A stretch of DNA of 64,000 bases, taken from Methanothrix sp. (lineage in GTDB: Archaea; Halobacteriota; Methanosarcinia; Methanotrichales; Methanotrichaceae). Location: the NCBI GenBank assembly GCA_037128175.1, contig JBAXWY010000006.1, positions 28,858-92,857 of the forward strand. Direction: 5' to 3'. The position numbers and the translations under genes were made by a program. Shown here in pieces: positions 43,123-57,977 of this stretch. Numbering within the stretch: the stretch's first letter is position 1; the number at the start of each line of letters is the position of its first letter. A model generated the notes under the pieces. It did no database searches. It saw nothing but the letters and a program-made list of their open reading frames with translations, and was not told the DNA's origin.

Positions 43123-44883
43123 TTAAGTTTCCTCAACGGGATAGTAGTATTCGCCCTGCTCCTTTTGAGTTCTTTCCAGCCTTGACTGTGGCTTGTTAAC
43201 GCGCGGCCGCCGCGTCTCCTCATCGCGCCGGAAGGTGATGTTTATGGCTTTGAGAAAGGCGTTCATGCCCTCACGCATCTCCAAAGGCGTATGAGCAATG
43301 CCCAAAACCCCCGCCGTGCCCTCAAAGACCATGAGCCGTTCCGCGAGCAGATCGATGAGATAGATATCATGGTCCACGACCAGCACCGTCTTCTCCGAGG
43401 ACTCGGCAAAGCGCCTCATGACCTTGGCCGCCAGCATCCTCTGCTCCACATCCAAATGCGCCGACGGCTCATCCAGCAGATAGAGGTCCGCCTCGCGACT
43501 GAGGCAGGCAGTTATGGCCACGCGCTGCAGCTCGCCACCGGATAGCTCCGTCAAGGCCTGATCCATAAACGGCTCCAGGCCCATGGGCTTTAAAATCTCC
43601 GTCTGGTAGAAGCTGGTGTCAAAGTCATGAGTCACGCTACGTAGAAGCCCCTGCACAGTTACATCGGAATCGGCTTTCAGGTACTGGGGCTTGTAGGATA
43701 CTCTGAGCCGGCAATCGAAGCTTCCAGCGGTCGGCTTTTCCACGCCCGCCAGGACCTTGATGTAGGTACTCTTGCCGATGCCGTTCGGACCCAGGATGCC
43801 CACCACTTCGCCACGACGAATGATACCGGGCTCTGCCACCAACCGGAAGGATGAGTACTGCACTTCAAAGGCCCCGTAGGCGATGAGCGTGGGGATCTCC
43901 TTGTCGATGCGGGGGGCATGCACATCGAAACGAATGGATGTATCCCGGAAGCGCACATTCTCCTCAGGAAGGTTGCCGCGCAGGTATTGGTTGATGCCTA
44001 CCCTTACCCCTTTGGTCCGGGTTATGACGCCATAGGCCCCAGGCACGCCGTAGATGAGATGAACGTTTTCTGCCAGAAGGTCAAGCAGGGCCAGGTCATG
44101 TTCCACTACCATGACCGCCTTATCCTTGGCCAGGCTCTGCAGGATGCGGGCCACGTTGATGCGCTGGTAAATATCCAGGAAGGGGCTGATCTCATCGAAG
44201 AAATAGAAATTGGCGTCGCGCGCGACCGTCGCCGCGATGGCCACTCGCTGCAACTCTCCACCTGAGAGGCTTGATATCTCCCGGTCCATGAACTTGCCTA
44301 GAGAAAGTCCTTCCACCAGATCGGCGAGAGCACCGCGTTCGTCCGTTTTCTCCAAGAGACCGCTAACAGGCCCCGAATAGCTCTTGGGGATGCGATCAAC
44401 ATACTGCGGCTTGTAGGATGTCTTGACGCCCTTATCTGCTACCTTTTTCAGATAATCTCCCAGGGCGCTGCCCGCAAAGCGGGAGAACACATCATCCCAG
44501 GAGGCATTCTTCCCCAAATTAGGTCGAAGGATGCCAGAGAGTATGGATACGGCGGTGCTTTTTCCTATGCCGTTGGGGCCCAAAAGACCGGTGACCCGGC
44601 CCTCAACCGGCACGGGCAGACCATAAAGCGCAAAGCCGTTCTGGCCATACCTGTGCACCGGATCCTCCATCTCTTCCGGCAGGTTGGTGATGGTAATCGC
44701 CCCAAAGGGGCATTTGCGCACACAAATACCGCAGCCCACGCAAAGGTTCTCGGTGATGAGGGGCTTGCTATCCACAAAGACTATGGTCTCGTCGCCCGTG
44801 CGTACCGGTGGGCAGAAGTACTCGCACTCTTTGGAGCACTTGCGGGGCTGGCAGCGATCGCGGTTGATGATGGCAATTCTCAT
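43123..44883 (-). CDS. rli: Ribosome recycling ATPase ABCE1/RLI
   Basis: N-terminal 2x[4Fe-4S] Cys motifs; two GPNGIGKS and LSGGELQR cassettes; RPRVNK. Confidence 0.96.
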   Translation of the reverse strand: MRIAIINRDRCQPRKCSKECEYFCPPVRTGDETIVFVDSKPLITENLCVGCGICVRKCPFGAITITNLPEEMEDPVHRYGQNGFALYGLPVPVEGRVTGLLGPNGIGKSTAVSILSGILRPNLGKNASWDDVFSRFAGSALGDYLKKVADKGVKTSYKPQYVDRIPKSYSGPVSGLLEKTDERGALADLVEGLSLGKFMDREISSLSGGELQRVAIAATVARDANFYFFDEISPFLDIYQRINVARILQSLAKDKAVMVVEHDLALLDLLAENVHLIYGVPGAYGVITRTKGVRVGINQYLRGNLPEENVRFRDTSIRFDVHAPRIDKEIPTLIAYGAFEVQYSSFRLVAEPGIIRRGEVVGILGPNGIGKSTYIKVLAGVEKPTAGSFDCRLRVSYKPQYLKADSDVTVQGLLRSVTHDFDTSFYQTEILKPMGLEPFMDQALTELSGGELQRVAITACLSREADLYLLDEPSAHLDVEQRMLAAKVMRRFAESSEKTVLVVDHDIYLIDLLAERLMVFEGTAGVLGIAHTPLEMREGMNAFLKAINITFRRDEETRRPRVNKPQSRLERTQKEQGEYYYPVEET

Positions 44884-44892
44884 GGGTATACC

Positions 44893-45303
44893 TCAGTTGA
44901 GAAGGAGCGTCCAGGCAACCAGCCAGAAATCGACTACCATGAACTCTACATAGATCCAATCTTTGGTCTTGAAGCTTGCTGCATCTATATTCAAGAACGT
45001 ATAGGTATACTTTTGAATGACATAGGTAAGCAGTATTACAGAAAGCATCACGAAATGCCAGGGATAACGATCTAATGCCGCACCTGTATAATAGCAGGCA
45101 AAGCCCGCCACGGTTCCGAGGATAGAAGGATACACGGTCTTGATTATTCCATCAATGCGGTCCTTTCTGCGTTCGGCTGCGCTCTTGGGCAAGACTTTGG
45201 GCGGTAGCTTGGCTACCTTTTCACTCGGTTTTTCCTGGGTAGTCGCGAGGGTCGCGAGCCGTTGGTCTTCCTTATTGCCAACCTTTTTTTCTTTCTTGGC
45301 CAT
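44893..45303 (-). CDS. EMC6-like archaeal membrane protein
   Basis: Three TM segments; KDW.YV.FM...FW.V.WTLLLN tail; adjacent to ABCE1. Confidence 0.7.
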   Translation of the reverse strand: MAKKEKKVGNKEDQRLATLATTQEKPSEKVAKLPPKVLPKSAAERRKDRIDGIIKTVYPSILGTVAGFACYYTGAALDRYPWHFVMLSVILLTYVIQKYTYTFLNIDAASFKTKDWIYVEFMVVDFWLVAWTLLLN

Positions 45304-45386
45304 CCAACCTTTGCATTTCATTATATGATAATAGCGTTTTGGTCCGGGAAAAGTCCAAGTACTATAACTTTCAAGAGCCTCTGCAT

Positions 45387-45842
45387 GTGTATGTCGTAGC
45401 GGATGCCTCGGTATTCATCTGGGGTAAAAGGCCAGCAGGGGAATTGATCACCGTCCCGGCGGTTGAAGCGGAGCTCAAAGATATAAGGACAAAGTCCCTG
45501 CTTCACATCTTCGAGACGCGAGTGGAAAGCCCCTCCCCCCAGGCGCGAAAGGCTGCAGAGCGCGCCGCAACACAGACAGGCGACCTCAAAGCACTGTCTT
45601 CCGCTGATTTGGATGTCCTGGCAAAAGCCCTGGAATATAGAGCAGTTCTAGCTACCGATGACTACGCTCTGCAAAACGTCGCTCTTCACCTCGGCCTGAA
45701 GATCGAGACCATCGGGCAGCCCAGGATAAAGAGATTGCTAAAACACGTCCAGAGGTGCCAGGGCTGCGGCAGCAAATTCGAGGGGGAAACTTGTGCGGAT
45801 TGCGGAACTCCTGCCCGAAAGAAAAAGAGGTGCATAAGATGA
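45387..45842 (+). CDS. nob1: Nob1-family PIN endonuclease with Zn ribbon
   Basis: VADAS, T...V..E, TGD...LS.AD, TDDYALQN and CQGC...CADCG. Confidence 0.88.
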   Translation: MYVVADASVFIWGKRPAGELITVPAVEAELKDIRTKSLLHIFETRVESPSPQARKAAERAATQTGDLKALSSADLDVLAKALEYRAVLATDDYALQNVALHLGLKIETIGQPRIKRLLKHVQRCQGCGSKFEGETCADCGTPARKKKRCIR

Positions 45843-46456
45843 AGAATATTGAAACTTTGATTAAGAAGGCAACAGAACTAAAGGCGGAAGGACTGGTTGA
45901 AGGCCAGATATCAGAGGAGCTGAATGTCTCCAGCGAGACGGTGACCTGGCTGCTTACTCATGCTGAGAAGACGAGCACATCGCCCGGGCCCAAAGATATC
46001 TCAGTGGACTGGTCCATGATCGGCAAGAGTGCCTTTAGGCTGAACCACGTCTCGGAAGCACTCTCCGATATCATTTATGATACTTTAGACGACAACGACT
46101 GCGGCGTGGATGTCGTGGTGGGCATAGCTTTAAGCGGCCTGCCTCTGGCCAGCATGGTGGCCAATAGCCTGGCGGCGGAGCTTGCTGTCTACACTCCCAG
46201 CAAACAGATGCTCACCAAAGAGAGCGGCAAGGCGCGCGGCAATCTGAGCGCTAACTTCGCCGGTGTTATGGACAAAGAGTGCATCATCATAGACGATGTG
46301 ATTACATCCGGCCAGACGCTGGAAGAGGCTGTCGAGTATCTGGATGAGCACGGGGCCAAGATCAATGCAGTCGCTGTCCTGATCGACAAGAAGGGCACGG
46401 ACGAGATCGCGGGAGTTCCCGTGGTTTCGCTCTTGAAGGTCTTGAGAGTAAATTAG
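45839..46456 (+). CDS. PyrE-like PRTase with N-terminal HTH (GfcR-like)
   Basis: I.EELNVS.ETVTWL HTH, DISVDWS and IIDDVITSG PRPP motif. Confidence 0.85.
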   Translation: MKNIETLIKKATELKAEGLVEGQISEELNVSSETVTWLLTHAEKTSTSPGPKDISVDWSMIGKSAFRLNHVSEALSDIIYDTLDDNDCGVDVVVGIALSGLPLASMVANSLAAELAVYTPSKQMLTKESGKARGNLSANFAGVMDKECIIIDDVITSGQTLEEAVEYLDEHGAKINAVAVLIDKKGTDEIAGVPVVSLLKVLRVN

Positions 46457-46599
46457 ATCAAACCGATTATGAGATGGCCGGAAAAGACGGCCATTCAAAT
46501 ATTTTCTTCGGAACCCTGATCTTTGCGCGTACTTTTCCCCGACCCTTAGAAAGCCTTTTAGCATTCCTGTATCAACTTTCGCACTCAAGCTGATCAACT

Positions 46600-49500
46600 A
46601 TGTTCTCCGAGGATGAGTATCGATTGGACTTCTTCGTGGATGAGGGATTCCAGCGCAAGAAGTGCGACAAATGCGGCAAATTCTTCTGGACCAGGAACGG
46701 CGAGAGGAGGACTTGCGGGGACCCGCCCTGCGATCCCTATACCTTCATAGGCTCTCCCATATTCAAACGCGAGCACACAATAGACGAGATGCGCGAGCAC
46801 TACCTCAGCTTCTTTGAGGCCCGAGGGCACGCTCGCATCAAGAGGTATCCGGTGGTGGCCCGCTGGCGAGACGACATTTACCTCACCATTGCCTCCATCG
46901 CCGATTTCCAGCCTTTTGTGACCTCCGGGCAGGTGCCGCCGCCCGCCAACCCCCTCACCATCAGCCAGCCCTGCATCAGGCTTGATGATCTAGATTCGGT
47001 AGGGCGCAGCGGACGGCATCTCACCACCTTCGAGATGATGGCCCACCACGTCTTCAACACTCGCGAAAAGGAGTACTACTGGAAGGATCGTACGGTCCAA
47101 TTATGCGATGAGCTGCTGGTCGGTCTGGGCATGGACCCGCTGGCTGTGACCTACAAGGAGAATCCCTGGGCAGGCGGCGGGAACGCGGGACCGAGCGTGG
47201 AGGTCATGGTCGGGGGTCTGGAGCTTGCCACGCTGGTCTTCATGGACCTTAAAACTGCACCAGGAGGGGCCATCCAGATCAAGGACGAGTCTTATGAGAA
47301 GATGAACAACTACATCGTGGACACCGGCTACGGTCTGGAGAGGTTTGTCTGGGCCTCCAAGGGCTCGCCTACCATTTACGATGCTATTTTTCCCGATCTG
47401 GTCAGGAAGGTGGCCGACCTGGCGGGCGTCGAGCACAACCTGCAAGACCCTGAGTATGCCGAGATCTTCGCCCAGAATGCCCGCCTTGCAGGAATGGTGG
47501 ATCTGGACGAGTACAGCATGCAGGATCTGCGCAGGAAAATTGCGGGCAGCATCGGCATCTCGCCCGAGAAGCTGGAGAAGACCATCGAGCCCATGGAGCG
47601 CATCTATGCCGTGGTGGACCATACCCGTTGCCTGGCTTACATGTTTGGAGACGGCATCATCCCCTCCAATGTCAAAGCAGGCTACCTGGCAAGGCTGGTC
47701 ATCCGCCGCACTCTGCGCCTGATGAAAGAGCTGGAATTGTCTCTGCCACTGGCGGAATTGGTGGAGATGCAGATCCAGCGGCTGGACTATTCTGACTGGC
47801 AGGAGCGCTTTGTCACCATCAAGGAGATCCTCGACCAGGAAGAGCAGAAGTACGCGGAGACCCTGGAGAAGGGCAAGCGTCTGGTCAAGAAGACGGCCGA
47901 GCACTTTAAAAAGTTGAACCAGCCCATTCCCCTGGTGGAGATGATCTCCCTTTACGACACGCACGGCATTCCCCCTGAGATCGCTCGCGAGTCGGCAGAG
48001 GAGATGGGGGCAACGGTGGAACTGCCGGACAACTTCTACTCACTGGTGGCCAAGAAACGCATCCGGGCCGAGAAAGTAGAAGCCAAAGCCACCCTGCCCG
48101 GCAAGACTGAGCTTTTATTCTACGAGCAGCCCTTCGGGCAGGTCTTCGAGGCCCAGGTGCTGGATGTGATGCAGGACGGCAGCATCATCCTGGACAGAAC
48201 GCTCCTCTACCCAGAGGGCGGCGGCCAGCCGGCTGATCACGGCACTCTGGAGAAGGGGGGCAGGGCTTTCTCTGTAGTGGATGTGCAAAAGTCGGGAGAC
48301 GTTGTGCTGCATAAGTTAGCAAGGCCGGGATTGGCGAAAGGCGACTATGTCACCGGCAAGGTGGACATGCGTCGCAGGCTGGCGCACGCCCGCCATCATA
48401 CTGCCACTCACCTGGTGCACGACTCCGCAAAACGCGTTTTAGGCAAGCACGTCTGGCAGGCAGGAGCCCAGAAGAGCGAGGATCGTGCCCGGCTGGACAT
48501 CTCCCACTACAAGCGCATCACAACCCTGGAGCTGAAGGCGATAGAGTTAGAAGCTAACCGGCGGGTGATGGAGATGGAACCAGTGGACACCCAGTTCCTT
48601 CCCAGGACGGAGGCGGAAAAGCTCTTCGGCTTTGAGCTGTACCAGGGAGGCGTGCCTCCTGGAAATCAGATTCGCGTGGTGCGGGTGGGCAGCGACATCG
48701 AGGCCTGTGCTGGAACGCACGTCACCAACACAGGGCAGATCGGGGCCATCAAGATCCTGCGCGCCGAGCGCATTCAGGACGGCGTGGAGAGGATCGAGTT
48801 TGCTGCAGGCGAAGCGGCCGTGCGGGCGGGCCAGGAGCGCGACGACCTGCTCTCCGGAGCCGCAGACGTGCTGCGCGTTCCGAACGAGCAACTGCCCCGC
48901 ACGGCGGAGCGCTTCTTTGAGGAGTGGAAGGGCCAGCAGAAGGAGATCGAGCGACTGACGGATGAACTGGCATTGGTAGATGTCATGTTCCTGGAAAAAA
49001 ATGCTTGGGAAAGCATGTCGATAAATGGTCTAAAAACGATAAGAGGTATTGTAAACAATTGGGATTTTGAAAGATTGATCAAGACTAGCACGCTACTTGC
49101 GAAGAAGGATTATTTTACAGTAATCGTGGATGGGAGTGGAAAGTTTGCAGTAGCGATTGGAAACACTGGTTTGAAAAGCGGCATGAAAGCAAATGCTACT
49201 GCAAAAGAGATCATAAGGAACTTAGGCGGCAAAGGTGGAGGAAAAGCAGAGTTGGCTCAAGGTGTTGTTACAAAGCTAGATAGCTTGGAAGAAGATCTTG
49301 GCAAGACTTTAGCGTTATATTTAGGTATTCCTTACTTTAGTTCGCGAGAAGAGAATGTAGAATCAAATTTAAGAAGTGAACCCCCCTCAGAAAAGACTGA
49401 GCGCTCCGATTTACTCTTGAAGCAAGGAATAGACCTTTGGCGCAAAGGATATCGTGATAAAGCAATGGAGTGCTTCGATAAATCTATAGAATTAGATCCC

Positions 49501-49965
49501 ATGAATGAGCAAGCATGGATAAAAAGAGGCATTGCTTTTGGCAACCAAGGTGAACATAACCAAGCAATCGAATGCTTCCGTCATTCTTTGGAAATCAATC
49601 AAGAGTCCGCGGAAGCATATCATAATCTTGGAGTTGCTTTTGGACATATTGGTCAATATAAGGATGCCGAAGAGAATTTTAACAACGCTATTGAAAAGAA
49701 GCCGGATTATGCAAATGCGTGGCTCAATATGGGTACTGCTAATCTCAAGCGAGCCAAGTATATAGATGCATTAAATTGCTTCAATAAGGCTATTGAGCTG
49801 AATCCAAATGATGAAATGGCCTGGTTTAGCAAAGGAGTGGCACTTTCAGAAAGGAAGGACTATTCGGAGGCTATTGATTCTTTAAGGACTGCCATCGACC
49901 TAAAGCCATCTTTTGAAGCCGCTAAGGCCAAAATTGCTTCAATAGAAAGCAAATTAAAAAATTGA
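46600..49965 (+). CDS. alaS: Alanine--tRNA ligase with divergent C-Ala domain and C-terminal 5-TPR extension
   Basis: Archaeal AlaRS motifs TIASIADFQP, QPCIR, H.T.FEM, DTGYGLER, HTATH and ACAGTH. Single frame through GGKGGGKAELAQG into TPRs (about 49400-49965). Confidence 0.92.
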   Translation: MFSEDEYRLDFFVDEGFQRKKCDKCGKFFWTRNGERRTCGDPPCDPYTFIGSPIFKREHTIDEMREHYLSFFEARGHARIKRYPVVARWRDDIYLTIASIADFQPFVTSGQVPPPANPLTISQPCIRLDDLDSVGRSGRHLTTFEMMAHHVFNTREKEYYWKDRTVQLCDELLVGLGMDPLAVTYKENPWAGGGNAGPSVEVMVGGLELATLVFMDLKTAPGGAIQIKDESYEKMNNYIVDTGYGLERFVWASKGSPTIYDAIFPDLVRKVADLAGVEHNLQDPEYAEIFAQNARLAGMVDLDEYSMQDLRRKIAGSIGISPEKLEKTIEPMERIYAVVDHTRCLAYMFGDGIIPSNVKAGYLARLVIRRTLRLMKELELSLPLAELVEMQIQRLDYSDWQERFVTIKEILDQEEQKYAETLEKGKRLVKKTAEHFKKLNQPIPLVEMISLYDTHGIPPEIARESAEEMGATVELPDNFYSLVAKKRIRAEKVEAKATLPGKTELLFYEQPFGQVFEAQVLDVMQDGSIILDRTLLYPEGGGQPADHGTLEKGGRAFSVVDVQKSGDVVLHKLARPGLAKGDYVTGKVDMRRRLAHARHHTATHLVHDSAKRVLGKHVWQAGAQKSEDRARLDISHYKRITTLELKAIELEANRRVMEMEPVDTQFLPRTEAEKLFGFELYQGGVPPGNQIRVVRVGSDIEACAGTHVTNTGQIGAIKILRAERIQDGVERIEFAAGEAAVRAGQERDDLLSGAADVLRVPNEQLPRTAERFFEEWKGQQKEIERLTDELALVDVMFLEKNAWESMSINGLKTIRGIVNNWDFERLIKTSTLLAKKDYFTVIVDGSGKFAVAIGNTGLKSGMKANATAKEIIRNLGGKGGGKAELAQGVVTKLDSLEEDLGKTLALYLGIPYFSSREENVESNLRSEPPSEKTERSDLLLKQGIDLWRKGYRDKAMECFDKSIELDPMNEQAWIKRGIAFGNQGEHNQAIECFRHSLEINQESAEAYHNLGVAFGHIGQYKDAEENFNNAIEKKPDYANAWLNMGTANLKRAKYIDALNCFNKAIELNPNDEMAWFSKGVALSERKDYSEAIDSLRTAIDLKPSFEAAKAKIASIESKLKN

Positions 49966-50021
49966 ACAAAAGGAAAAGGTGCTTGCATGGATAGAATGTT
50001 GAACGTCCCATTAAAGCATGT

Positions 50022-50250
50022 CATAGGATGAGCAGCGCAGACATCGATGAGCTTCTCAAGGCGGAGGCACTCCTGGCGGAGCGGGACGGATCGCCCTTTT
50101 GGGCAGCGAGACAGGCAAGTTGGTCGCCACGGTGGGCCAGTCAGGCATCGATAAGGGCATCAAGGCTGGCTGCATCATCCTGGCGGATGGCTCAATGTGG
50201 AGAAGCTGGACAAGGCATTTCAGGCGGGAAGAACGGCGATGATGGCCTAA
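50022..50250 (+). pseudogene. Degenerate copy of alaS 3' end (C-Ala/DHHA1 remnant #1)
   Basis: Across frames: HRMSSADIDELLKAEALLAERD / IALLGSETGKLVATVGQSGIDKGIKAGCII / NVEKLDKAFQAGRTAMMA*. Confidence 0.75.
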
Positions 50251-50314
50251 ATATTTTTTTCTTTGACGATACAATTTTCAATAACCAATTTGGGTTTGAA
50301 GGGACGGCAGGATC

Positions 50315-51328
50315 ATGGGAACTGAAATAAAAACATGGCAGATTATAGACGGCAAGTTAACCTCCGTGGATACCGCTCTGAAATATGAAGGCCGAACTGA
50401 GCCATACGATCTTGAACCCTGGCTCGCATCAAATCCTGAAATAATAGGAACGGATATCATGATCATTGGCAGGCAGGTTATGACTAAATCCGGCCCTATT
50501 GACTTACTTGCCGTTGACAAATCTGGAAACACGGTGATTATTGAAATCAAGCGCGCCGAACTGCCACGAGAGACACTTGCTCAGGCGATCGATTACGCAT
50601 CAAATGTTGCTGAATGGACTGCAGAAAAATTGAGCGAAATTCATTCGTCATACACTTCAAGAGCATTTGGGGAATCTTTCAACGAGGCATTTCCTGATAT
50701 CGATCTGGAGAATGTAAATCTCAATAGCACGCAAAGAATTCTCCTTGTCGGCTTCTCCATCGAGGCGTCACTCGAAAGAATGATTGAATGGCTTTCGGAC
50801 TCTTATGAAGTCAACGTCAATGCCATAGTTCTAAATTATGTCAAGACAAAAGGTGGAGACGAACTTCTGATGAAGACGTCCATCATTTCTGAAGAGGCGG
50901 AACAGGAACGGAGCGGAAAAAGGAAAAAGTTTGAAATACCGATGTCCGATGAACCTCCCGCCATTGATTACGATGTGTCAAGCCTGAAGGGATTGTTGCT
51001 CGATTACCTCTCAAGAGATCGAGTCACTAACAGGCGAATGCGGGACATTCTATTTCCATCACTCTTGAATACCAAGGAACCTGATAAGCTCAGCAGAGAT
51101 CAATTATCAAGCAAATTTGTTGAGTTCGACAATAATTACGATGAGTCGAAAGTAGGATTCTACCTGACATCAATTTCATCGCAACTTGGTATGAAGAAGA
51201 ACGATTTTCTTCGACAAGTTATTGCATACGAGTACCCACGGCATCATTGGGAGAAAGATAACTTTTCGATTCGGCTCAAATACCGGGATCTAGTTTTAGA
51301 GGTCCTTGAAGAACTGAAGAGGCAATAA
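50315..51328 (+). CDS. NucS/DUF91-like PD-(D/E)XK endonuclease domain protein
   Basis: E..LE.WL, IGRQV.T..G.IDLLAVD..G..VIIEIKR and AQAIDYAS. Confidence 0.8.
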   Translation: MGTEIKTWQIIDGKLTSVDTALKYEGRTEPYDLEPWLASNPEIIGTDIMIIGRQVMTKSGPIDLLAVDKSGNTVIIEIKRAELPRETLAQAIDYASNVAEWTAEKLSEIHSSYTSRAFGESFNEAFPDIDLENVNLNSTQRILLVGFSIEASLERMIEWLSDSYEVNVNAIVLNYVKTKGGDELLMKTSIISEEAEQERSGKRKKFEIPMSDEPPAIDYDVSSLKGLLLDYLSRDRVTNRRMRDILFPSLLNTKEPDKLSRDQLSSKFVEFDNNYDESKVGFYLTSISSQLGMKKNDFLRQVIAYEYPRHHWEKDNFSIRLKYRDLVLEVLEELKRQ

Positions 51329-51372
51329 TCAAAACTCACATTTATATCAAAAGAGCATCCAACACCATCTCC

Positions 51373-51621
51373 GTGAATAACGAAAACCTACTGGAAAGGA
51401 TCACCATAAATCCCAAAGTAATGGTAGGCAAACCCGTCATCCGGGGCACTCGGCTCACCGTGGAGTACATCCTGGGACTCCTGGCCCATGGCACCACCAT
51501 GGAGGATATCCTGGTGGAGTATCCCGGCTTGGAAAAGGACGACATCTATGCCTGTCTTCTCTTTGCCTCCAAGACCCTTCAAGACGCTTCTTTCATTCCC
51601 CTCGCGGCCGAGGCCGTTTAG
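51373..51621 (+). CDS. DUF433 antitoxin
   Basis: RITINPKVMVGKPVIRGTRLTV..IL..LA.G....DIL.EYP.L...DI.ACL.FA. Confidence 0.92.
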   Translation: MNNENLLERITINPKVMVGKPVIRGTRLTVEYILGLLAHGTTMEDILVEYPGLEKDDIYACLLFASKTLQDASFIPLAAEAV

Positions 51622-51777
51622 ATGCGTTTCCTGGTTGACGAATGCGTGGGCCCTTCTGTCGTGAGGTGGCTACGCGAGAACAATCATGACGCCACCTCTG
51701 CTTGCGAGGATTGCAGGGGATGGGAAGACGAAAGCAGAGGCCGAGATCATGGATGGCCTAAGAATCGTGGTGCATAA
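51622..51777 (+). pseudogene. DUF5615 (PIN-like) toxin, truncated
   Basis: MRFLVDECVGPSVVRWLRENNHDA...RGWEDE then runs into the alaS remnant and stops after 51 codons; immediately follows DUF433. Confidence 0.8.
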
Positions 51778-51993
51778 GATGGGCAGCGAGACCGGCAAGC
51801 TCGTGGCCGCAGTAGGGCCTAGTCGGGCCTGGCGAAGGGCGTCAAGGCGGGCAGCATCATCCGGGCCGCGGCCAAGGCCCTGGGCGGGGGCGGAGGAGGT
51901 CGACCGGAGCTGGCGCAAGGTGGGGGGCCCAATGCCGAGAAGCTGGACGAGGCCCTGGCGGCGGGAAGGGAGGCGATGAGGGCAGGGGCGTAA
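51731..51993 (+). pseudogene. Degenerate copy of alaS 3' end (C-Ala/DHHA1 remnant #2)
   Basis: KAEAEIMDGLRIVVHKM-GSETGKLVAAVG / [56 protein letters not shown]; host-like high GC. Confidence 0.85.
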
Positions 51994-52599
51994 GGCCTCT
52001 GCCTCGGTCTTCTTGCGCTCGGATGATGCACGCCGCAATTTCATAGAGGCAGGAGAAGGCGGAAAAGATCCGGTTCATTGAGCAGGGCCTCTATGCGGAC
52101 ACGGATTATGCAAGACAGGATTGCCAAGCGGTCCTCCCGAACATTTCTCCCCAACTCCAATACTCATTTGCCCCGCTCTAACAAGCTGGCCCAGGAGTTC
52201 AACCGGATGGAGCTGGATTTTTTCAGCGATCATCGCACCGCAGGCACGCGCATCTACCGGCAATATTCTCTCACCCAAATCACATCCACCTCACCGGCCA
52301 CCTTACTTGCATATCATTCCCCTGGCCGAGATTATTGCTCTGGCCCAGGCTACAAGAGTGTCATGACGGCAGGCGTGCAAAAGAGCATTATGTTTTTTAA
52401 TAATTTCATACTCCGTCCACGTTTCCTTTTTTTGGGCGCCGTAAGAGTCAATAACTTTATATACATTTAAAAGATATTAATCATATGCTTTATTTGAGAG
52501 TAGTTTACCATAGCATTAATGTGGTGTATATGTAACATTCGAAATAAGATTCAACAATTAAAATATTTATTATATGTTGCAAACCAAGAGGAGTAAGAT

Positions 52600-55500
52600 A
52601 TGTTCGCCAGTAATTTAACCCCGAAGAATAGGCATAGATTAAAGAGAAAAAGCTATTTTAGCATCGGCTTTGCCGGAGTACTCTTTTTTGCCGGCATGCT
52701 ACTTGTGGTATTGATGTCGAACAACAGCGCTGCGATTCCTGGTGATGTCTCAGTTGACAATGTAATCAACGTATCCGACAACCAGAATCTTAGTGCCAAT
52801 GGTGCAACCCCTGGCGCCGAACTTCACTTCAGAACAAAGAGGGCAACACCAGAAGAGAGAAGGGCTGCCGCCGAGCGTTTCAAAGAGATTTATAAACCCG
52901 CCCAGGTACTAGCTCAAGCTAAGGCTCTTGCTGCAGCTCAGAATGTTTCTGCTGCCCCACCGGTCTTTGCCCTCGATCCCGGCGGTGTACCACATTATTT
53001 CGGACCATACGCAAACTGGGCCAACAGCCCGCTGCCTAAGGGCGTTATAACCAGCATCGCGGTTACGGACGGAGGCAGCGGCTACACTGCGGCACCTGTT
53101 GTTATCGTTGATGATGCCTACAACAACATTGGAGTTGTTAGGGCTAATGTTGCGGCAGTGCTTAATGGCGGCGTTATAACCGGCATCACAGTATATGCCG
53201 GTGGCAGTGGATATACGGCTCCAGTAGTCACTATCACCGACCCTACCGGCACGGGCGCCAGTGCTACGGCATACATAGGCGGTCCCCTAGCAGGCGGCAT
53301 GAGAAAATTCGTCGATTCGCTGCCCGGTCTGAATGCAGCCGGAAAGAACGACCTGGGACAGTATATACCAGTTGCCGTTCCGGACAAGACAACCTATCCA
53401 GGATGCGATTACTATGAGATCGCCGTCGTGCAGTACTCCGAGAAGATGCATAGAGACCTTCCCAATACAACTCTGCGAGGATATGTGCAGCTTGAGACAC
53501 CCCAGAATTTGGCCACCAGCAGGCACATCCCACTGAAGTACCCCAACGGCACCGCAATAAAGAACGCAACAACAAACTTGCCTGTTCTTGCACATAATGA
53601 TACCCAATACCTGGGGCCAACTATTGTGGCAGAGAGGGGCGTTCCTGTGCGTGTGAAGTTCCATAACTATCTTCCCACGGATGTCGATGGCGACCTCTTC
53701 ATTCCCGTGGACCACACAGTCATGGGATCAGGAATGGGTCCGATGGGAATGATGGCAAGCCCCATGAACTACAGCGAAAATCGCGCTGCAGTTCATCTGC
53801 ATGGTGGCGATACAGTGTGGATCAGCGATGGAACACCTCACCAGTGGACAACACCTGCCGGTGAGCACACATCCTACCCGAAAGGTGTCAGTGTGAGGAA
53901 TGTCCCGGACATGGACGGCGGAAATGAGCCGCAAGGTACGCTGACTTTCTACTATACCAACGATATGAGTGCCAGGCTGATGTTCTATCATGACCATGCC
54001 TACGGCATCACCCGTCTCAACGTCTACTCCGGAATGGCGGCGGGTTACCTGATCACCGACAACGTAGAACAAGACCTGATCAAAGGTACCGACGTTACCG
54101 GTGTCAATCCTACCAAAGCCAAGCTTCTTCCCGATGTAGGGATTCCTCTGGTCATCCAGGATAAGACCTTCGTTGATAGTACCACCATAGCAGCACAGGA
54201 TCCTACCTGGAACTGGGGGACGGGACCAAGAGACGTGAACGGAAAAATAACAAACGCTGTCACCGGTGACCTCTGGATGCCCCATGTCTACATGACGAAT
54301 CAAAATCCCTGGGACATTACCGGAACTAATGCCTTTGGCCGGTGGATGTATTCCCCCTGGTTCTGGCCTCCCGCCACACCTACAAAGAGAGGGCTGATTC
54401 CTAACCCATACTACACAGGAGGAGCCGGAAGCGCAGCACCCTGGGAGCCGCCCATGATACCCGGAACTCCAAACCCATCCATGGCGATGGAGTCCTTTAT
54501 GGATACGCCCATAATCAATGGCGCTGCTTATCCCAGTCTAGAGGTGGGGCCCAAATCCTATCGCTTCCGCATCCTGAATGCAGCCAACGAGAGATCTTTG
54601 AATTTGCAGATGTATTTGGCAAGTTCCATCATCAATAGCATAACCGTTACCAATGGCGGCAGCGGCTATACACAGCCATCGATCTTTATCACGGATTCTA
54701 CAGGATACGGTCGGGGCGCTACTGCCAGAGCCACGATTTCCGGCGGCATCATTACTGGCATATCTCTTCTGACTGCAGGAAGCAACTATACAGCACCGAT
54801 GGTTACCATTACCGATCCTACCGGCAAGAGCGCTACTGCTACGGCATCAGTCTACACAGGTCTGACGGAAGTGGGCATGGTCCCTGCATCCAATTGTGCA
54901 GGCTTGCCGGCTAACTGGCCGACAGATGGAAGAGATGGCGGTGTACCTGATCCACTACGAAAAGGTCCGTCATTTATCCAAATTGGCAGCGAAGGCGGCT
55001 ACCTGCCGGCACCAGTAGTGATAGAGAACCAGCCGGTTACTTTTATCGGAAATGCGCAGGCGTTCAACTTCGGAAATGTAGATAAGCATACACTTCTGCT
55101 GGGGCCGGCGGAGCGGGCGGATGTCATCATCGACTTCTCCCAATATGCAGGAAAGACCATCATTCTCTACAATGATGCACCTGCGGCGTTCCCAGCGGCG
55201 GACCCGCGTGTGGATTACTACACTCATGACGTGGACCAGAGGGATACGGGAGGTGCACCAACAACTCAACCGGGATATGGCCCCAATACCAGGACCATCA
55301 TGCAGATCAATGTGAAGGCAACAACAAGACCAGATCCTGCTTACGATCTGGCCACACTCAATCAGGTATTTGCCAAAAAGGCAGGCAAGAGGGGCGTATT
55401 TGAGGTATCGCAACCGCCGATCATCGTTCCGCAGGCAGCTTACAACTCCGCCTACGACAAGACGTTCCCCTTCGATGTTATTAAACAATACGTTCAGCTC

Positions 55501-56877
55501 TACCAATCCAGCCATACATTCTGGAATATTGGCGGCTCGGAACTGACGATCCCACTGGAGCCCAAGGCAATCCATGATGAGATGAACGCTGCCTATGACG
55601 AAGAGTACGGACGGATGAGTGGTTTATTAGGGCTTGAAATGCAAACTACTAACCCCTTGAATCAGAATTTCATGCTCTACGGATTCGCAAGTCCACCTGT
55701 CGAGGTCATAAAGGACTCCATGACGCCTCTCTCTGAACCATCTGCAGGCGATGGGACTCAGATCTGGAAGATCACGCACAATGGTGTTGATACCCACACA
55801 TATCACTTCCATCTGTACAATGTGCAGGTCATCAACAGAGTTGCATGGGATGGCATTCTCTTACCGCCTGATGCCAATGAGCTGGGCTGGAAGGAGACTG
55901 TCAGGACCAACCCCCTGGAGCATACCATTGTGGCCTTGAGACCGGTTGCACCACGGGTGCCTTTCAAGGTTCCCAACAGCACCCGCTTGATTGACCCGAC
56001 AATGCCTGCAGGAGACATTCTGAAGGGCCCGCCTGGTGGATTCCTTGACCCGGCTGGAAATCCGGTTACCGTCTTGAACCATCTGGTCAACTTCGGTTGG
56101 GAGTACATGATACACTGCCATCTCCTGGGCCATGAAGAGATGGATATGATGCACACCCAGGTGTTTGCAGTTGCACCGGAAGCGCCGACTAACCTTGCAG
56201 TCACTGTAGGCAGTCCTGTTACTTTAACATGGGTGGACAATTCCATCAGCGAAACCGGATTCACCATCCAGAGAGCAAAGGATGCCGCATTCACCGTGGA
56301 TCTGACTACATTCACAGTTGGACCAAATGTAGTAACATACATCGATAATACGGCAGTGCCTGGTACAACATACTACTACAGGGTGCGAGCTGACAACCTG
56401 GTAGGCGATACCACAGTGTATCCGGCTCCTGCTGTTGGATTCCCCCAGAAGACGGCTGAATCAAAATGGTCAAACTTGGCGGTCAACCTGTATGTTTCCA
56501 TTGCTCTTCAGGCCTTCAATGGCCAGTATGTCTGTGCAGAGGGCAGCGGCGGTGATGGAGTCGTAGCTAACCGTAATGTCATCGGTCCCTGGGAGACTTT
56601 CAAGCTCATCGATCAGGGCAACGGCAATGTGGCTCTGCAAGCCTTCAATGGCCAGTTCGTCTGTGCTGAAGGTGGCGGTGGCGGCCTTTTGGTAGCTAAC
56701 CGCAATTGGATCCTCGGATGGGAGACTTTCAAGCGCATAGATCTGGGCGGCGGCAATATAGCTTTGCAGGCCGCCAATGGCCAGTACGTTTGTGCGGAAG
56801 GAGGCGGCGGACGTGAGGTGGTGGCTAACCGCGATTGGATCCGCGAATGGGAGACTTTCAAGCTGATCGCAATCTAA
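52600..56877 (+). CDS. Large exported multicopper oxidase with inserted GGSGYT repeats, FN3 and C-terminal fascin-like domain
   Basis: Cu motifs VHLHGG, FYHDH, HTYHFHL and HCHLLGHEEMDM; FN3 (APTNL...LTW.DN..YYYRVRA); 3 fascin repeats. Confidence 0.88.
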   Translation: MFASNLTPKNRHRLKRKSYFSIGFAGVLFFAGMLLVVLMSNNSAAIPGDVSVDNVINVSDNQNLSANGATPGAELHFRTKRATPEERRAAAERFKEIYKPAQVLAQAKALAAAQNVSAAPPVFALDPGGVPHYFGPYANWANSPLPKGVITSIAVTDGGSGYTAAPVVIVDDAYNNIGVVRANVAAVLNGGVITGITVYAGGSGYTAPVVTITDPTGTGASATAYIGGPLAGGMRKFVDSLPGLNAAGKNDLGQYIPVAVPDKTTYPGCDYYEIAVVQYSEKMHRDLPNTTLRGYVQLETPQNLATSRHIPLKYPNGTAIKNATTNLPVLAHNDTQYLGPTIVAERGVPVRVKFHNYLPTDVDGDLFIPVDHTVMGSGMGPMGMMASPMNYSENRAAVHLHGGDTVWISDGTPHQWTTPAGEHTSYPKGVSVRNVPDMDGGNEPQGTLTFYYTNDMSARLMFYHDHAYGITRLNVYSGMAAGYLITDNVEQDLIKGTDVTGVNPTKAKLLPDVGIPLVIQDKTFVDSTTIAAQDPTWNWGTGPRDVNGKITNAVTGDLWMPHVYMTNQNPWDITGTNAFGRWMYSPWFWPPATPTKRGLIPNPYYTGGAGSAAPWEPPMIPGTPNPSMAMESFMDTPIINGAAYPSLEVGPKSYRFRILNAANERSLNLQMYLASSIINSITVTNGGSGYTQPSIFITDSTGYGRGATARATISGGIITGISLLTAGSNYTAPMVTITDPTGKSATATASVYTGLTEVGMVPASNCAGLPANWPTDGRDGGVPDPLRKGPSFIQIGSEGGYLPAPVVIENQPVTFIGNAQAFNFGNVDKHTLLLGPAERADVIIDFSQYAGKTIILYNDAPAAFPAADPRVDYYTHDVDQRDTGGAPTTQPGYGPNTRTIMQINVKATTRPDPAYDLATLNQVFAKKAGKRGVFEVSQPPIIVPQAAYNSAYDKTFPFDVIKQYVQLYQSSHTFWNIGGSELTIPLEPKAIHDEMNAAYDEEYGRMSGLLGLEMQTTNPLNQNFMLYGFASPPVEVIKDSMTPLSEPSAGDGTQIWKITHNGVDTHTYHFHLYNVQVINRVAWDGILLPPDANELGWKETVRTNPLEHTIVALRPVAPRVPFKVPNSTRLIDPTMPAGDILKGPPGGFLDPAGNPVTVLNHLVNFGWEYMIHCHLLGHEEMDMMHTQVFAVAPEAPTNLAVTVGSPVTLTWVDNSISETGFTIQRAKDAAFTVDLTTFTVGPNVVTYIDNTAVPGTTYYYRVRADNLVGDTTVYPAPAVGFPQKTAESKWSNLAVNLYVSIALQAFNGQYVCAEGSGGDGVVANRNVIGPWETFKLIDQGNGNVALQAFNGQFVCAEGGGGGLLVANRNWILGWETFKRIDLGGGNIALQAANGQYVCAEGGGGREVVANRDWIREWETFKLIAI

Positions 56878-56984
56878 GAGACTGCTAGATGTGCTGTCCT
56901 ATCCTTTTTACAGGAAGGGATGGCTATATTTTTATGGAGTGAGCAATAATTGAGTTTTGCATGAAAAACTGTTGAGATGATACC

Positions 56985-57707
56985 ATGAGATACGAATTAG
57001 CTCTCTTATTTGCGCTTAACCTATTGGTTTTCGCAATGCCGGCAACTGCTGAAAACGTTGATCAATATATAAGGAACCTTGAAGATGAAAATAGCGTTAC
57101 TAAAGCGGATGCTGCAATGGCTCTTGGTGAGCTCAATGACACAAGCGCTATTGACCCGTTGATTCAAGCCCTTAAAGATGAGAACAGCTCGGTTCGATCT
57201 GAGTCGGCCAAAGCTCTGGGATGGATCAAAGACAAACGCGCACTCGACCCATTAATTCAGGCTTTGAATGACCAGGATGGAGAAGTTCGCGGGTCAGTCG
57301 TAGCGGCTCTCGGTGAGTTGAAAGACAATCAAGCCGCAGATCCGCTAATACAATCTCTGCGTGATGATATGGTCTCAGTCAGGGCTAAAGCTGCCAAAGC
57401 TCTGGGAAAGATTGGGGATGAAAAAGCCGTCGATCCATTGATCCAGGCTCTAAAGGATGAAGACCCCATAGTAAGGTATCAATCGGCAGAAGCTCTGGGC
57501 AATATAAAAGACGACCGAGCAGTCGATCCACTGATAGAGGCTCTGAATGATGAGGATAACAGTGTAAGATACTGGACGATAGTGGCTTTGGGAAATATAG
57601 GTGACACCCGTGCTACAGAACCATTGACTAAAGTGTCTCAGGAGGATAGTGATAGTTACGTCCGAAATGCTGCAGAAGATGTACTGAAGAGACAGGGATG
57701 GAAATAA
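56985..57707 (+). CDS. Signal-peptide-bearing HEAT-repeat (PBS-lyase-like) protein
   Basis: Six to seven 31-aa repeats DPLIQAL.DE...VR..AA.ALG.I.D. Confidence 0.88.
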   Translation: MRYELALLFALNLLVFAMPATAENVDQYIRNLEDENSVTKADAAMALGELNDTSAIDPLIQALKDENSSVRSESAKALGWIKDKRALDPLIQALNDQDGEVRGSVVAALGELKDNQAADPLIQSLRDDMVSVRAKAAKALGKIGDEKAVDPLIQALKDEDPIVRYQSAEALGNIKDDRAVDPLIEALNDEDNSVRYWTIVALGNIGDTRATEPLTKVSQEDSDSYVRNAAEDVLKRQGWK

Positions 57708-57794
57708 GGGAAACTGGCAATTATGCTCGCAAGCATGCACCTTTGATATGATAAGAAATGAAGAGCACCTCATTCTTATTTTATTATAAAACGC

Positions 57795-57925
57795 AATACC
57801 CGCAGCTTGCTGCGACTGGGATAAAGGGCATACGTATTCAACTTAGGCTTGGATCAATCAGCCCTACCGGGTTCCATTTTCATGCGGCGACGCTTTGGAT
57901 GCCCCGCAGCTTGCTGCGCGGGTGC
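57795..57925. mobile_element. Short non-autonomous element with two palindromic ends (IS200/IS605-type PATE or REP-like)
   Basis: ATACCCGCAGCTTGCTGCG (57796-57814) and ATGCCCCGCAGCTTGCTGCG (57899-57918), each a CGCAGC-TT-GCTGCG palindrome. Confidence 0.55.
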
Positions 57926-57977
57926 GCCGCCGCCGTTTCACTCTTTTGAGATAATGATCTATCTCTCCAACACCCAT

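Follow-up and report, generated by a model that had tools for sequence, protein, structure and literature searches.

A chimeric alaS with a foreign C-Ala-TPR end and remnants of earlier ends behind it in Methanothrix

The single alaS of this Methanothrix genome is a natural chimera in which an in-frame junction links a native core to a horizontally acquired C-Ala-TPR end. We analyzed a 64,000-nt stretch of the genome (the window), in which alaS is an unbroken ORF (46600-49965) encoding 1121 amino acids (aa), compared with 909-915 aa in most relatives. All window features described here lie on the + strand. The whole protein matches TIGR03683 (1251 bits), and this is the only full alaS match in the genome, which is 99.8% complete. 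The native part (46600-48965; 59.5% G+C) encodes the catalytic, tRNA-recognition and editing domains (Pfam tRNA-synt_2c and tRNA_SAD) up to the block encoding ...RFFEEWKGQQKEIERL and is 94.7% identical at the nucleotide (nt) level to the core of the nearest relative, G012. Collinearity with that genome stops at 48965, and across the junction (48965/48966) G+C switches from 59.5% to 39.9%. Residual codon-level similarity crosses this left junction, within a block that is 83-95% conserved across the genus.

The foreign end (48966-49965; 39.9% G+C) consists of a divergent C-Ala domain (DHHA1-like, dimerization/tRNA-binding; ~48966-49340), a disordered linker, about five TPRs (~49390-49962) and the stop codon. 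In the protein, Pfam placed DHHA1 at residues 841-898 and four to five TPRs at ~936-1110. An AF2 model (pLDDT 89.8) predicts a true C-Ala fold, which is shared with the C-terminal domain of the archaeal A. fulgidus AlaRS (PDB 3wqy/2zvf; TM 0.75). The glycine-rich GG.GGG...LAQG motif, invariant in the C-Ala alignment, is kept. Identity to the solved domain, however, reaches only 23-27%, and the TPR extension of the foreign end is absent from the 909-915-aa relatives. Identity to the alaS tails of the genus is 41-45% (aa), and the top match among 400 sampled genomes of the phylum was 37%. We found no near relative among those 400 genomes or elsewhere in its own genome, and none among 1.84 billion representatives except for one variant, the 330-aa metagenome protein P0121 (97% identical), which is its only close relative. 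From the TPR stop codon to the resumption of native-type tail runs an AT-rich spacer (49966-50026), the right end of the newest insertion, for which no match was found in any relative. There is no homology at this right junction, and ~75 nt of the old tail were removed. The newest event was therefore a replacement and not a clean addition of a cassette, which corrects the capture model of a first-pass annotation of the window.

Behind the foreign end lie two earlier native-type alaS ends, both decaying pseudogenes. Remnant 1 (50027-50250) spans approximately tail codons 45-141 and matches the alaS tails of the genus at 78-84% nt identity, with homology starting at 50027. Roughly 45 codons are missing from the start of the tail, there is a ~52-nt internal deletion accompanied by a frame change, and the C-terminus is ...AGRTAMMA with its stop at 50250. 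In its stop codon and 3' flank the remnant agrees with the functional tails of G070 and G032, behind which the same nuclease gene is found, and window positions 50027-51647 are collinear with the tail, nuclease and DUF433 genes of G032 (84%). Remnant 2 (51733-51993) is G+C-rich, runs from approximately tail codon 33 to the stop, and matches the genus tails at 85-92% (92.2% for the functional tail of G042), with a ~63-nt internal deletion and a 2-nt insertion before its end at 51993. It is orthologous to a remnant in G012, and the flank behind it (51994-52048) is common to the flank behind the G012 remnant. Window positions 51980-52048 are 92.9% identical to L033 1803-1872, and a further shared piece at 52339-52386 matches L033 1992-2040; beyond this, no synteny with relatives was seen. 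The two remnants are direct repeats that have diverged from each other (75-81% identical), as first described, and contain the motifs quoted for them. A self-comparison of the genome returned 448 local repeat pairs.

Three cargo genes separate the remnants. The first (50315-51328) encodes a 337-aa PD-(D/E)xK-type nuclease-like protein with matches to Pfam NucS_C (E 6e-8, residues 33-82) and PADLOC PDC-S11 (E 3.4e-44, residues 1-203), and it scored far under the cut-off of NCBIfam NucS. It thereby matches a candidate family of single-gene phage defence. The second (51373-51621) is an intact DUF433 antitoxin-type gene of 82 aa (Pfam E 1.9e-24), which adjoins alaS in many relatives. Of the third (51622-51736), a DUF5615 (PIN-like) toxin gene that encodes 119 aa in relatives, only codons 1-37 are left (Pfam DUF5615 positions 1-38 of 110). 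The remainder is deleted in the window copy, and the truncated open frame extends into remnant 2 up to 51777. The DUF433 antitoxin is an orphan, and the DUF5615 toxin is broken. This layout, from the C-Ala-TPR end to the second remnant, lies at or within a few bases of where the first-pass annotation had placed it, and the layers are stacked in the order it proposed.

The window is not the product of a chimeric assembly. Over 47069-57962, across all junctions, the separately deposited metagenome contig L066 is 99.99% identical; a single contig of run X4 spans 48700-51824 with no differences, and a contig from run X15, from another study, bridges 49897-50086, although some of the covering runs may share their source with the window. 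Past 51736, the X15 contig reads on as an intact DUF5615. That reads of different strains or organisms were joined at repeated alaS-tail sequence is therefore highly improbable, even though the alaS tail is a break point in several assemblies of the genus (G015, G010, G053 and G067) and the contigs of runs X4 and X6 stop inside remnant 2. The foreign end of P0121, the 97% variant, occurs in a second strain, which also argues against an artefact.

There is no single invariant alaS end in the genus. Two or more tail matches were found in 19 of 59 genus genomes. Of the 52 with a tail, at least 16 carry a truncated extra one preceded by differing cargo (a count that sets aside four ambiguous genomes and adds one remnant-only genome). 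Where both are on the same contig (12 genomes), the extra tail is on the same strand, 0.6-3.7 kb behind alaS. Almost all remnants extend as far as the stop codon; their 5' truncation varies, with 5' ends from approximately tail codon 1 to 116. The cargo comprises five TA types (DUF433/DUF5615, DUF2281/PIN, ParE-like in two orientations, UPF0175/DUF3368 and UPF0150), nuclease-like genes, LTD and S-layer proteins, and an IS66 transposase. A second genome, G060, carries a low-G+C divergent foreign tail, followed by a HEAT ORF and then a native remnant. The window genome (G000) and G012, which are closest relatives, have remnant 2 and its flank in common, but the cargo before the remnant is wholly different.

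Most of this pattern could be local in origin, a possibility that we consider rather doubtful. It takes alaS-DUF433-DUF5615 as the old state, in which tandem duplication of the tail and TA module by unequal crossing-over produced the first remnant. Inheritance, conversion and trimming of this remnant would have followed, further genes would have entered the non-essential DNA separating the copies, and the AT-rich end alone would have been truly imported. Such a history would fit the DUF433-DUF5615-remnant junction that, with a 27-nt deletion, is common to at least six genomes (G059, G010, G053, G070, G057 and G017), the order tail-TA-remnant-TA' in G036, the order remnant-DUF433 in G044 and G046, and the many genus genomes with alaS-DUF433 and no remnant. 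It would also fit the finding that each genome's remnants cluster with its own functional tail. However, other remnants have no preceding DUF433/DUF5615 (ParE-like in G016 and G058, DUF2281/PIN in G012, UPF0175/DUF3368 in G054), and the tails of the window and G060 are truly foreign. In addition, the nuclease gene is 94.6% identical (nt) between the window genome and G070, compared with 88.5% for their alaS cores. Because the nuclease genes are closer than the cores, this suggests exchange of the gene between lineages.

Because the junction is common to at least six genomes, much of the remnant pattern is inherited and should not be taken as a tally of independent captures. The remnants share old junctions yet group with the tail of their own genome, which points to gene conversion between tail copies. 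The first-pass annotation had proposed successive captures, each with a new end. That model is largely supported, but import of a tail is clear only for the newest layer (48966-50026), which brought the foreign C-Ala and displaced the previous end; in the older layers, the clustering of remnants with their own tail would be equally compatible with import, gene conversion or local duplication.

We interpret the locus, with somewhat better than even confidence, as the product of recombination without an integrase, with the conserved FFEEWKGQQKEIERL coding block as its anchor, by the same logic as C-terminal displacement in Rhs/T6SS loci. Incoming DNA would comprise the 3' part of alaS plus whatever stood behind it in the donor, and would integrate without a site-specific recombinase. 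One end would pair by homology in conserved alaS, where the FFEEWKGQQKEIERL-encoding block is the last good anchor; the other would be joined by illegitimate recombination within the resident tail or immediately after it. The route may be homology-facilitated illegitimate recombination or single-crossover integration of a circularized fragment. Only events that leave alaS intact would survive, so each surviving insertion would supply or keep a complete end and push the 5'-truncated old end downstream. TA modules may stabilize DNA landing behind alaS. Tail copies could later recombine with one another. Gene conversion would then make remnants similar to the resident tail, and deletions would also arise, as in the loss that extends from codon 38 of DUF5615 into remnant 2. 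A donor of the foreign end did not turn up in the searched genomes and representatives, so donor homology at the anchor could not be inspected. Further points weigh against this interpretation. For the older layers, no sequence is closer to the remnant than the functional tail, and vice versa, which leaves tail import a possibility there. The G036 arrangement looks like tandem duplication. Finally, the newest junction (48965) and the shared older remnant junction, which starts in the FFEEW codons, are only ~50 nt apart, and this proximity could equally mark the target site of a recombinase. We know of no demonstration of the proposed mechanism in methanogens.

A recombinase target would implicate integrative elements, which we regard as unlikely. 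The cargo would then be decayed plasmids or viruses that used an att site inside the 3' part of alaS and carried a substitute gene end; their recombinase genes would since have been lost, and the TA modules, being addictive, would have persisted. Inserted DNA flanked by direct repeats of the target 3' part, the stacking of successive layers, the closeness of the two best-defined junctions within the most conserved block, and the TA and defence genes, typical leftovers of mobile elements, would all fit. However, a search of the window for the tyrosine-recombinase family PF00589 gave no match, in line with the first-pass annotation, and the nearest match (C6:3873-4133) is ~72 kb from alaS. A Pfam scan of 27 cargo ORFs chosen from the loci of 13 relatives found no integrase or recombinase (one ORF is the IS66 transposase). 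The inserted blocks are small (0.6-3.7 kb) in 12 of 12 same-contig cases, no viral contig with the alaS tail or anchor block was found, and remnant 5' ends are dispersed instead of falling at one site. The term cassette capture, which implies dedicated machinery, is thus not borne out, as no evidence for such machinery was found. Prophages e14 and phage 21 insert in the 3' part of icd in E. coli and carry a substitute end. As in alaS, the target is kept functional by a diverged replacement end and the old end becomes a downstream repeat, but these insertions depend on an integrase and a defined att core, and a complete element lies between the repeats; neither integrase nor element was found at alaS.

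Orphan 3' ends of Rhs/CdiA loci are reportedly described by Jackson et al. 2009, the source cited for them. The likeness to orphan C-terminal cassettes of polymorphic toxins drawn in the first-pass annotation is apt. In PMC5361080, which cites that study, Rhs/CdiA loci have a constant 5' part and a replaceable 3' part, as alaS does. Displaced 3' fragments that lack the 5' part form a stack downstream, all on one strand and with the most recent closest to the gene; small companion genes separate the orphans, and there is no dedicated recombinase. The model given there for Rhs/T6SS displacement invokes the mechanism proposed here. In the sequential displacement of Vibrio cholerae T6SS effector-immunity modules (PMC5361080), a conserved upstream homology anchor is combined with an illegitimate other end, and old downstream genes are shifted and kept, as at alaS; ordinary homologous recombination subsequently spreads the arrays among strains. 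In Vibrio, the immunity genes are presumed to be kept by selection, whereas here the constraint would be a whole alaS. Integron cassette arrays, as outlined there (PMC5361080), also receive new units beside a fixed point, from which older units are shifted away, but they have an integrase and an attC-type site; the alaS locus has neither, with the coding end of an essential gene serving as the "attachment". Other differences are clear. Vibrio is naturally competent, whereas a DNA uptake route in the methanogen is only putative. The alaS gene encodes an essential housekeeping archaeal aminoacyl-tRNA synthetase and not a secreted toxin, and the replaced part is a dimerization/tRNA-binding domain. 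Unlike in Rhs/CdiA, what accompanies the tails is TA, nuclease and other cargo, for which a cognate relation to the tail would be putative, and the orphans are broken, so that re-expression would follow only after repair.

From the genome comparisons, the stretch just behind alaS is a recurrent site of such rearrangement in the genus, and "hot spot" here refers only to this recurrence across genomes. In the window genome, since both downstream remnants are broken, the foreign C-Ala-TPR end of AlaRS is now indispensable.

The alaS gene of this Methanothrix sp. is chimeric. A single open frame of 1121 aa occupies 46600-49965, and the alaS frames of most same-genus relatives are 909-915 aa long. 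Residues 4-901 align with positions 1-895 of the 902 in TIGR03683 (archaeal alanine--tRNA ligase), C-terminal domain included, at 1251.8 bits (cut-off 744.7). This is the one full alaS match (n=1) in a genome rated 99.8% complete. The G+C content is 59.5% in the native part of the gene, the core (46600-48965), and 39.9% in the foreign end (48966-49965), with a genome mean of 50.8%. The core is 94.7% identical to that of the nearest relative, G012, which is collinear with the window across 45099-48965; past 48965 the alaS tail of G012 (the 3' end of the gene, coding for the C-Ala domain) matches 50027-50246 and 51733-52004 instead. Host-like sequence stops at the left junction with codons for ...FFEEWKGQQKEIERL. 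By hand count on the alignment, 11 of the first 18 bases past this junction equal the native sequence, the level of agreement that incoming DNA from a distantly homologous alaS should leave.

The left neighbours of alaS are conserved (43123-46456) and encode an ABCE1-type protein, assigned by its two ferredoxin-like cysteine clusters and two ABC domains in the sequence, EMC6-arch, a PIN_6 protein with a C-terminal zinc ribbon, and a phosphoribosyltransferase. Collinearity on this side covers 45086-48972 in the relative G011, in addition to the block common with G012. Longer AlaRS frames were also seen in other families of the phylum, in genomes G130 (C1:644438-644716; 1118 aa), G399 (1001 aa), G194 (994 aa) and G156 (992 aa), the usual length being ~910-940 aa.

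The foreign end begins with a divergent C-Ala domain. Pfam DHHA1 matches 48966-49340 (residues 787 to ~912) with 26.7 bits, barely above the cut-off of 25.9, and the glycine-rich motif G89 G90 G92 G93 G94 L98 A99 Q100 G101 is invariant in the protein alignment of the domain (A1). A PDB sequence search placed AlaRS C-terminal domains in the top three ranks, as weak matches (E 0.005-0.08). The AF2 model of the first 126 residues (pLDDT 89.8, pTM 0.84) was best matched by Foldseek to 3wqy_A (E 3.5e-8, TMq 0.75), followed by 2zvf and 3g98; 3wqy_A, the C-terminal dimerisation domain of A. fulgidus AlaRS, also gave the best superposition. As modelled, the foreign C-Ala has the fold of this solved archaeal domain, and dimerisation and tRNA binding are predicted functions only. 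The domain is followed by 4-5 TPRs (four stretches matched by Pfam TPR_1, five by TPR_2). In a 334-residue AF2 model, a linker of 12 low-confidence residues connects an alpha/beta domain to 11 TPR helices, for which the top PDB folds were consensus TPR proteins and MamA.

Searches for the origin of the foreign end point to an unsampled donor. The domain shares 41-45% identity with the tails of its genus, and across 400 genomes sampled from the phylum its best match reached 37% (any match in 236 of 401 genomes, the window's own included). A HMMER search of 1.84 billion representatives returned 18 hits at E <= 0.001, among which one was close: P0121, a 330-aa metagenome protein, 97% identical, from a 1204-nt contig that starts at the junction. 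The hits after it, at 38-41% identity, belong to tails or remnants of the Methanothrix-genus type. No second copy of the domain was found in the window's own genome, and a scan of genome contigs for the donor recovered no relative. Word-index homologue searches gave no match at E <= 0.001 for residues 780-935 and were flooded by TPR proteins, with no donor found, for residues 787-1121; a protein atlas search returned TPR clusters only, with scores below 0.8. We rejected the possibility that the TPR part is a captured neighbour, as it is 35% identical to its best own-genome paralogue and 33% identical to the REase-TPR gene behind alaS in G011. The latter gene (locus L036, 508-1713, minus strand) lies directly behind alaS and encodes a 401-aa protein with a REase_MTES_1575/DUF559 nuclease domain and ~7 TPRs.

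Two broken native-type tails lie behind the chimeric gene. In remnant 1 (50027-50250) the tail is preserved from codon ~45 onward, apart from ~52 nt that are deleted. The functional alaS ends of the relatives G070 and G032, where the same nuclease-like gene comes next, agree with it in stop codon and 3' flank, and 50027-51647 is collinear with the tail, nuclease and DUF433 genes of G032 at 84% identity. The layer preceding the newest one was therefore a G070/G032-type arrangement, in which the AT-rich DNA replaced ~75 nt of the tail and left the rest stranded. Remnant 2 (51733-51993) starts at about tail codon 33 and reaches the stop, but lacks ~63 nt and carries 2 inserted nt. Its identity is 92.2% with the functional G042 tail and 75-81% with remnant 1. 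Remnant 2 and its next 44-55 nt match the G012 remnant and its flank, so the remnants of these two genomes are orthologous. The cargo, meaning the genes between tail copies, that precedes the orthologous remnant in G012 is wholly different and consists of DUF2281 and a broken PIN gene. A 19-nt imperfect inverted pair flanks remnant 2; scans for inverted repeats, terminators and promoters around the units found nothing above chance.

The cargo of the window comprises a nuclease-like gene (50315-51328) with a weak NucS_C match, an intact DUF433 antitoxin-type gene (51373-51621) and a DUF5615 gene cut after codon 37 of 119. The nuclease-like protein matches PADLOC PDC-S11, a candidate defence family, at E 3.4e-44, with residues 1-203 of 337 covering only profile positions 1-196 of 358. 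The window thus holds a broken DUF433/DUF5615 pair; in G005, G017, G057, G059 and G070 the pair, a predicted type II toxin-antitoxin (TA) system by sequence, is intact. Further right, 52600-56877 is a 1425-aa open frame whose product has a signal-like N-terminus, contains a weak multicopper-oxidase domain and ends in three DUF7910/fascin-like repeats; the 400 nt upstream of the frame have 33-40% G+C. None of the relatives carries this frame behind alaS, which makes the locus variable on its right side as well.

Other contigs agree with this order. L066, a separately deposited metagenome contig, is 99.99% identical across 47069-57962; L067 shows no difference from the window and probably represents the same record. 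Among sequencing runs, compared as contigs and not reads and in some cases perhaps sharing their source with the window, X4 spans 48700-51824 with no difference and X6 spans 48700-51362. Run X15 comes from a different study; one of its contigs, of 190 nt, joins the TPR end to remnant 1 (49897-50086, 3 differences), and a second contig continues beyond 51736 as an intact DUF5615, indicating that the truncation is specific to the window strain. The RNA-library run X8 yielded contigs at 48941-49513, 49723-50228, 50256-50573, 51421-51646 and 51729-51955, which carry no transcription or strand information; none of them bridges 48965 with 31 letters on each side. One RNA-library contig joins 51983 to 50256 with 7 extra letters and 5 differences in 148 nt. 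An excised circle was rejected as its source, given the differences and the G070-type order in which the tail directly precedes the nuclease, and we read it as a related strain. Several draft assemblies break inside or just after the alaS tail (G015, at the end of C25 and the start of C75; G010, G053 and G067, at contig ends), which tail repeats or strain variants would explain if they mislead the assembler. A practical consequence is that repeated tail copies break assemblies of the genus at alaS, where the gene may be reported as truncated.

The arrangement recurs in the genus. The 141-aa tail of G012 matched 52 of 59 genus genomes, 19 of them at least twice. From these 19 we set aside G034 (two complete tails, on separate contigs), G063 (one tail matched in two frames), G015 (a pair of overlapping halves where contigs end) and G068 (a weak hit inside a 411-aa ORF), and we added G046, in which the remnant is the sole match. 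A 5'-truncated extra tail is present in at least 16 genomes. It sits downstream of alaS in the same orientation, 0.6-3.7 kb from the stop, in 12 (G000, the window's own genome, and G005, G012, G016, G017, G036, G044, G054, G057, G058, G059 and G070), and on a contig that ends nearby in G010, G053, G067 and G046. Twenty further genus loci added two weak extra matches only (G041 and G047). Remnants almost always extend to the stop codon, and their starts range from the FFEEW codons to tail codon 116. Many relatives' remnants keep an open frame of 94-122 aa to the native stop (L042 2169-2465, L050 2416-2709, L041 4314-4649, L051 747-1115, L043 1458-1742). Two proteins, P0123 and P0124, are listed with these; P0123, from a metagenome, has a hydrophobic N-terminus fused to a remnant.

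The genes before the remnants vary. DUF433/DUF5615 genes were found in G005, G017, G036, G057, G059, G070, G053, G010 and G067, DUF2281/PIN in G012, ParE-like pairs in G016 and G058, UPF0175/DUF3368 in G054, an LTD protein in G044, UPF0150 in G046 and G059, an HSDR_N-like protein in G057, the nuclease-like gene of the window in G070, and an S-layer-like protein and an IS66 transposase in G059. A second low-G+C functional tail occurs in G060 (L048 ~946-1850); it is 52% identical to the usual tail and is followed by a HEAT ORF, apparently split from it by a frameshift, and then by a native remnant. In the fragmentary metagenome protein P0122, such a tail is fused in frame to HEAT repeats. With TPRs in the window and HEAT repeats in G060 and P0122, helical-repeat extensions on C-Ala have arisen at least twice.

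Comparison of the tail copies suggests continued recombination between them. In G059, G010, G053, G070, G057 and G017 the remnant starts a few bases past the DUF5615 stop with decayed FFEEWKGQQKEIE codons, and all six remnants have a 27-nt deletion between two CGGCT repeats. We interpret the DUF5615-remnant junction of these genomes as one old junction. A tree was built from 39 functional tails and 9 remnants at least 150 nt long (the G015 row labelled a remnant may be part of that genome's real tail). The remnants form no clade in it (8 changes), and starred support places those of G057, G017 and G053 next to the functional tail from the same genome or its closest kin. A common junction with copy-specific similarity is the signature that gene conversion between repeats would leave. 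The alternative is independent duplication. At least part of the pattern could have begun as tandem duplication of a tail with its TA pair, as suggested by the orders tail-TA-remnant-TA' in G036 and remnant-DUF433 in G044 and G046. There is a modest sign of exchange between lineages in the G070 pair, where the nuclease segment is 94.6% identical to that of the window and the alaS cores 88.5%, and none in the G032 pair (84% and 84.4%). A self-comparison of the window's own genome for displaced gene ends returned 448 unannotated pairs of local direct repeats, for the most part repeat proteins and paralogues.

The locus thus shows an essential gene that is chimeric, a stack of former ends in decay, small cargo that varies, and an arrangement that recurs across the genus. 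We propose that integration would be homology-anchored and recombinase-free, either through one-sided homology or through single-crossover integration of a fragment with an alaS 3' part. Selection would purge all events that break alaS, and gene conversion and deletion between repeats would follow later. We know of no gene-transfer mechanism established for these organisms. The main rival explanation, that the cargo represents decayed integrase-borne elements, would fit the closeness of the two best-defined junctions, and we consider it unlikely: no recombinase, element or viral attP was found in the material searched. There is no PF00589 (tyrosine recombinase) match in the window and no site-specific recombinase among 27 cargo ORFs of relatives, picked by eye from 166 ORFs of >=45 aa, a selection in which small or unusual recombinases could be missed. 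The repeats at the insert ends, inspected for an att core, are long decayed tail copies with 75-81% identity; junctions lie near the FFEEWKGQQKEIERL block in two cases and the other remnant starts are scattered. A virus-borne attP was rejected, as no viral contig with an alaS tail or the anchor block was found.

The same model is proposed for Rhs C-terminal displacement and T6SS effector-immunity arrays in PMC5361080. Like an Rhs/CdiA array, the alaS locus joins a conserved 5' part to 3' ends that vary, and orphan 3' fragments in the same orientation are stacked downstream. Unlike in Rhs/CdiA, the variable end is a C-Ala domain and not a toxin, the ends are not each followed by a cognate immunity gene, and the genes behind the alaS ends (TA pairs, nuclease-like genes and others) have no fixed pairing with tail type. 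The alaS locus therefore works like a polymorphic-toxin array without being a member of that class. A search of open-access full-text literature, with most subscription journals outside it, found no paper on an alaS-linked hot spot; two apparent alaS hits concerned 'Alaska' and a qPCR control gene.

A broader and distinctly speculative reading, to which we give little credence, is that the alaS coding end serves as an integrase-free landing pad in the genus. Displaced tails would then be homology arms for strain-to-strain swaps of TA/defence cassettes and of whole C-Ala domains with protein-binding extensions (the TPRs of the window, the HEAT ORF behind the G060 tail and the in-frame HEAT fusion of P0122). 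A cassette supplying the sole working end of an essential gene would be undeletable, and C-Ala turnover might itself be selected, for example as escape from a viral or toxin factor targeting AlaRS or tRNA-Ala handling.

The displacement extends C-terminal exchange, hitherto described for secreted toxins as far as we found, to an archaeal housekeeping gene, and connects it with an integrase-free build-up of TA and defence-candidate genes. It also offers a testable case of small defence islets that form and turn over beside a conserved anchor. An essential, universally conserved enzyme tolerates a natural wholesale swap of its C-terminal domain, and the replacement, ~40% identical to the native domain and carrying an added TPR module (HEAT in relatives), is a natural experiment on what archaeal AlaRS needs from C-Ala.
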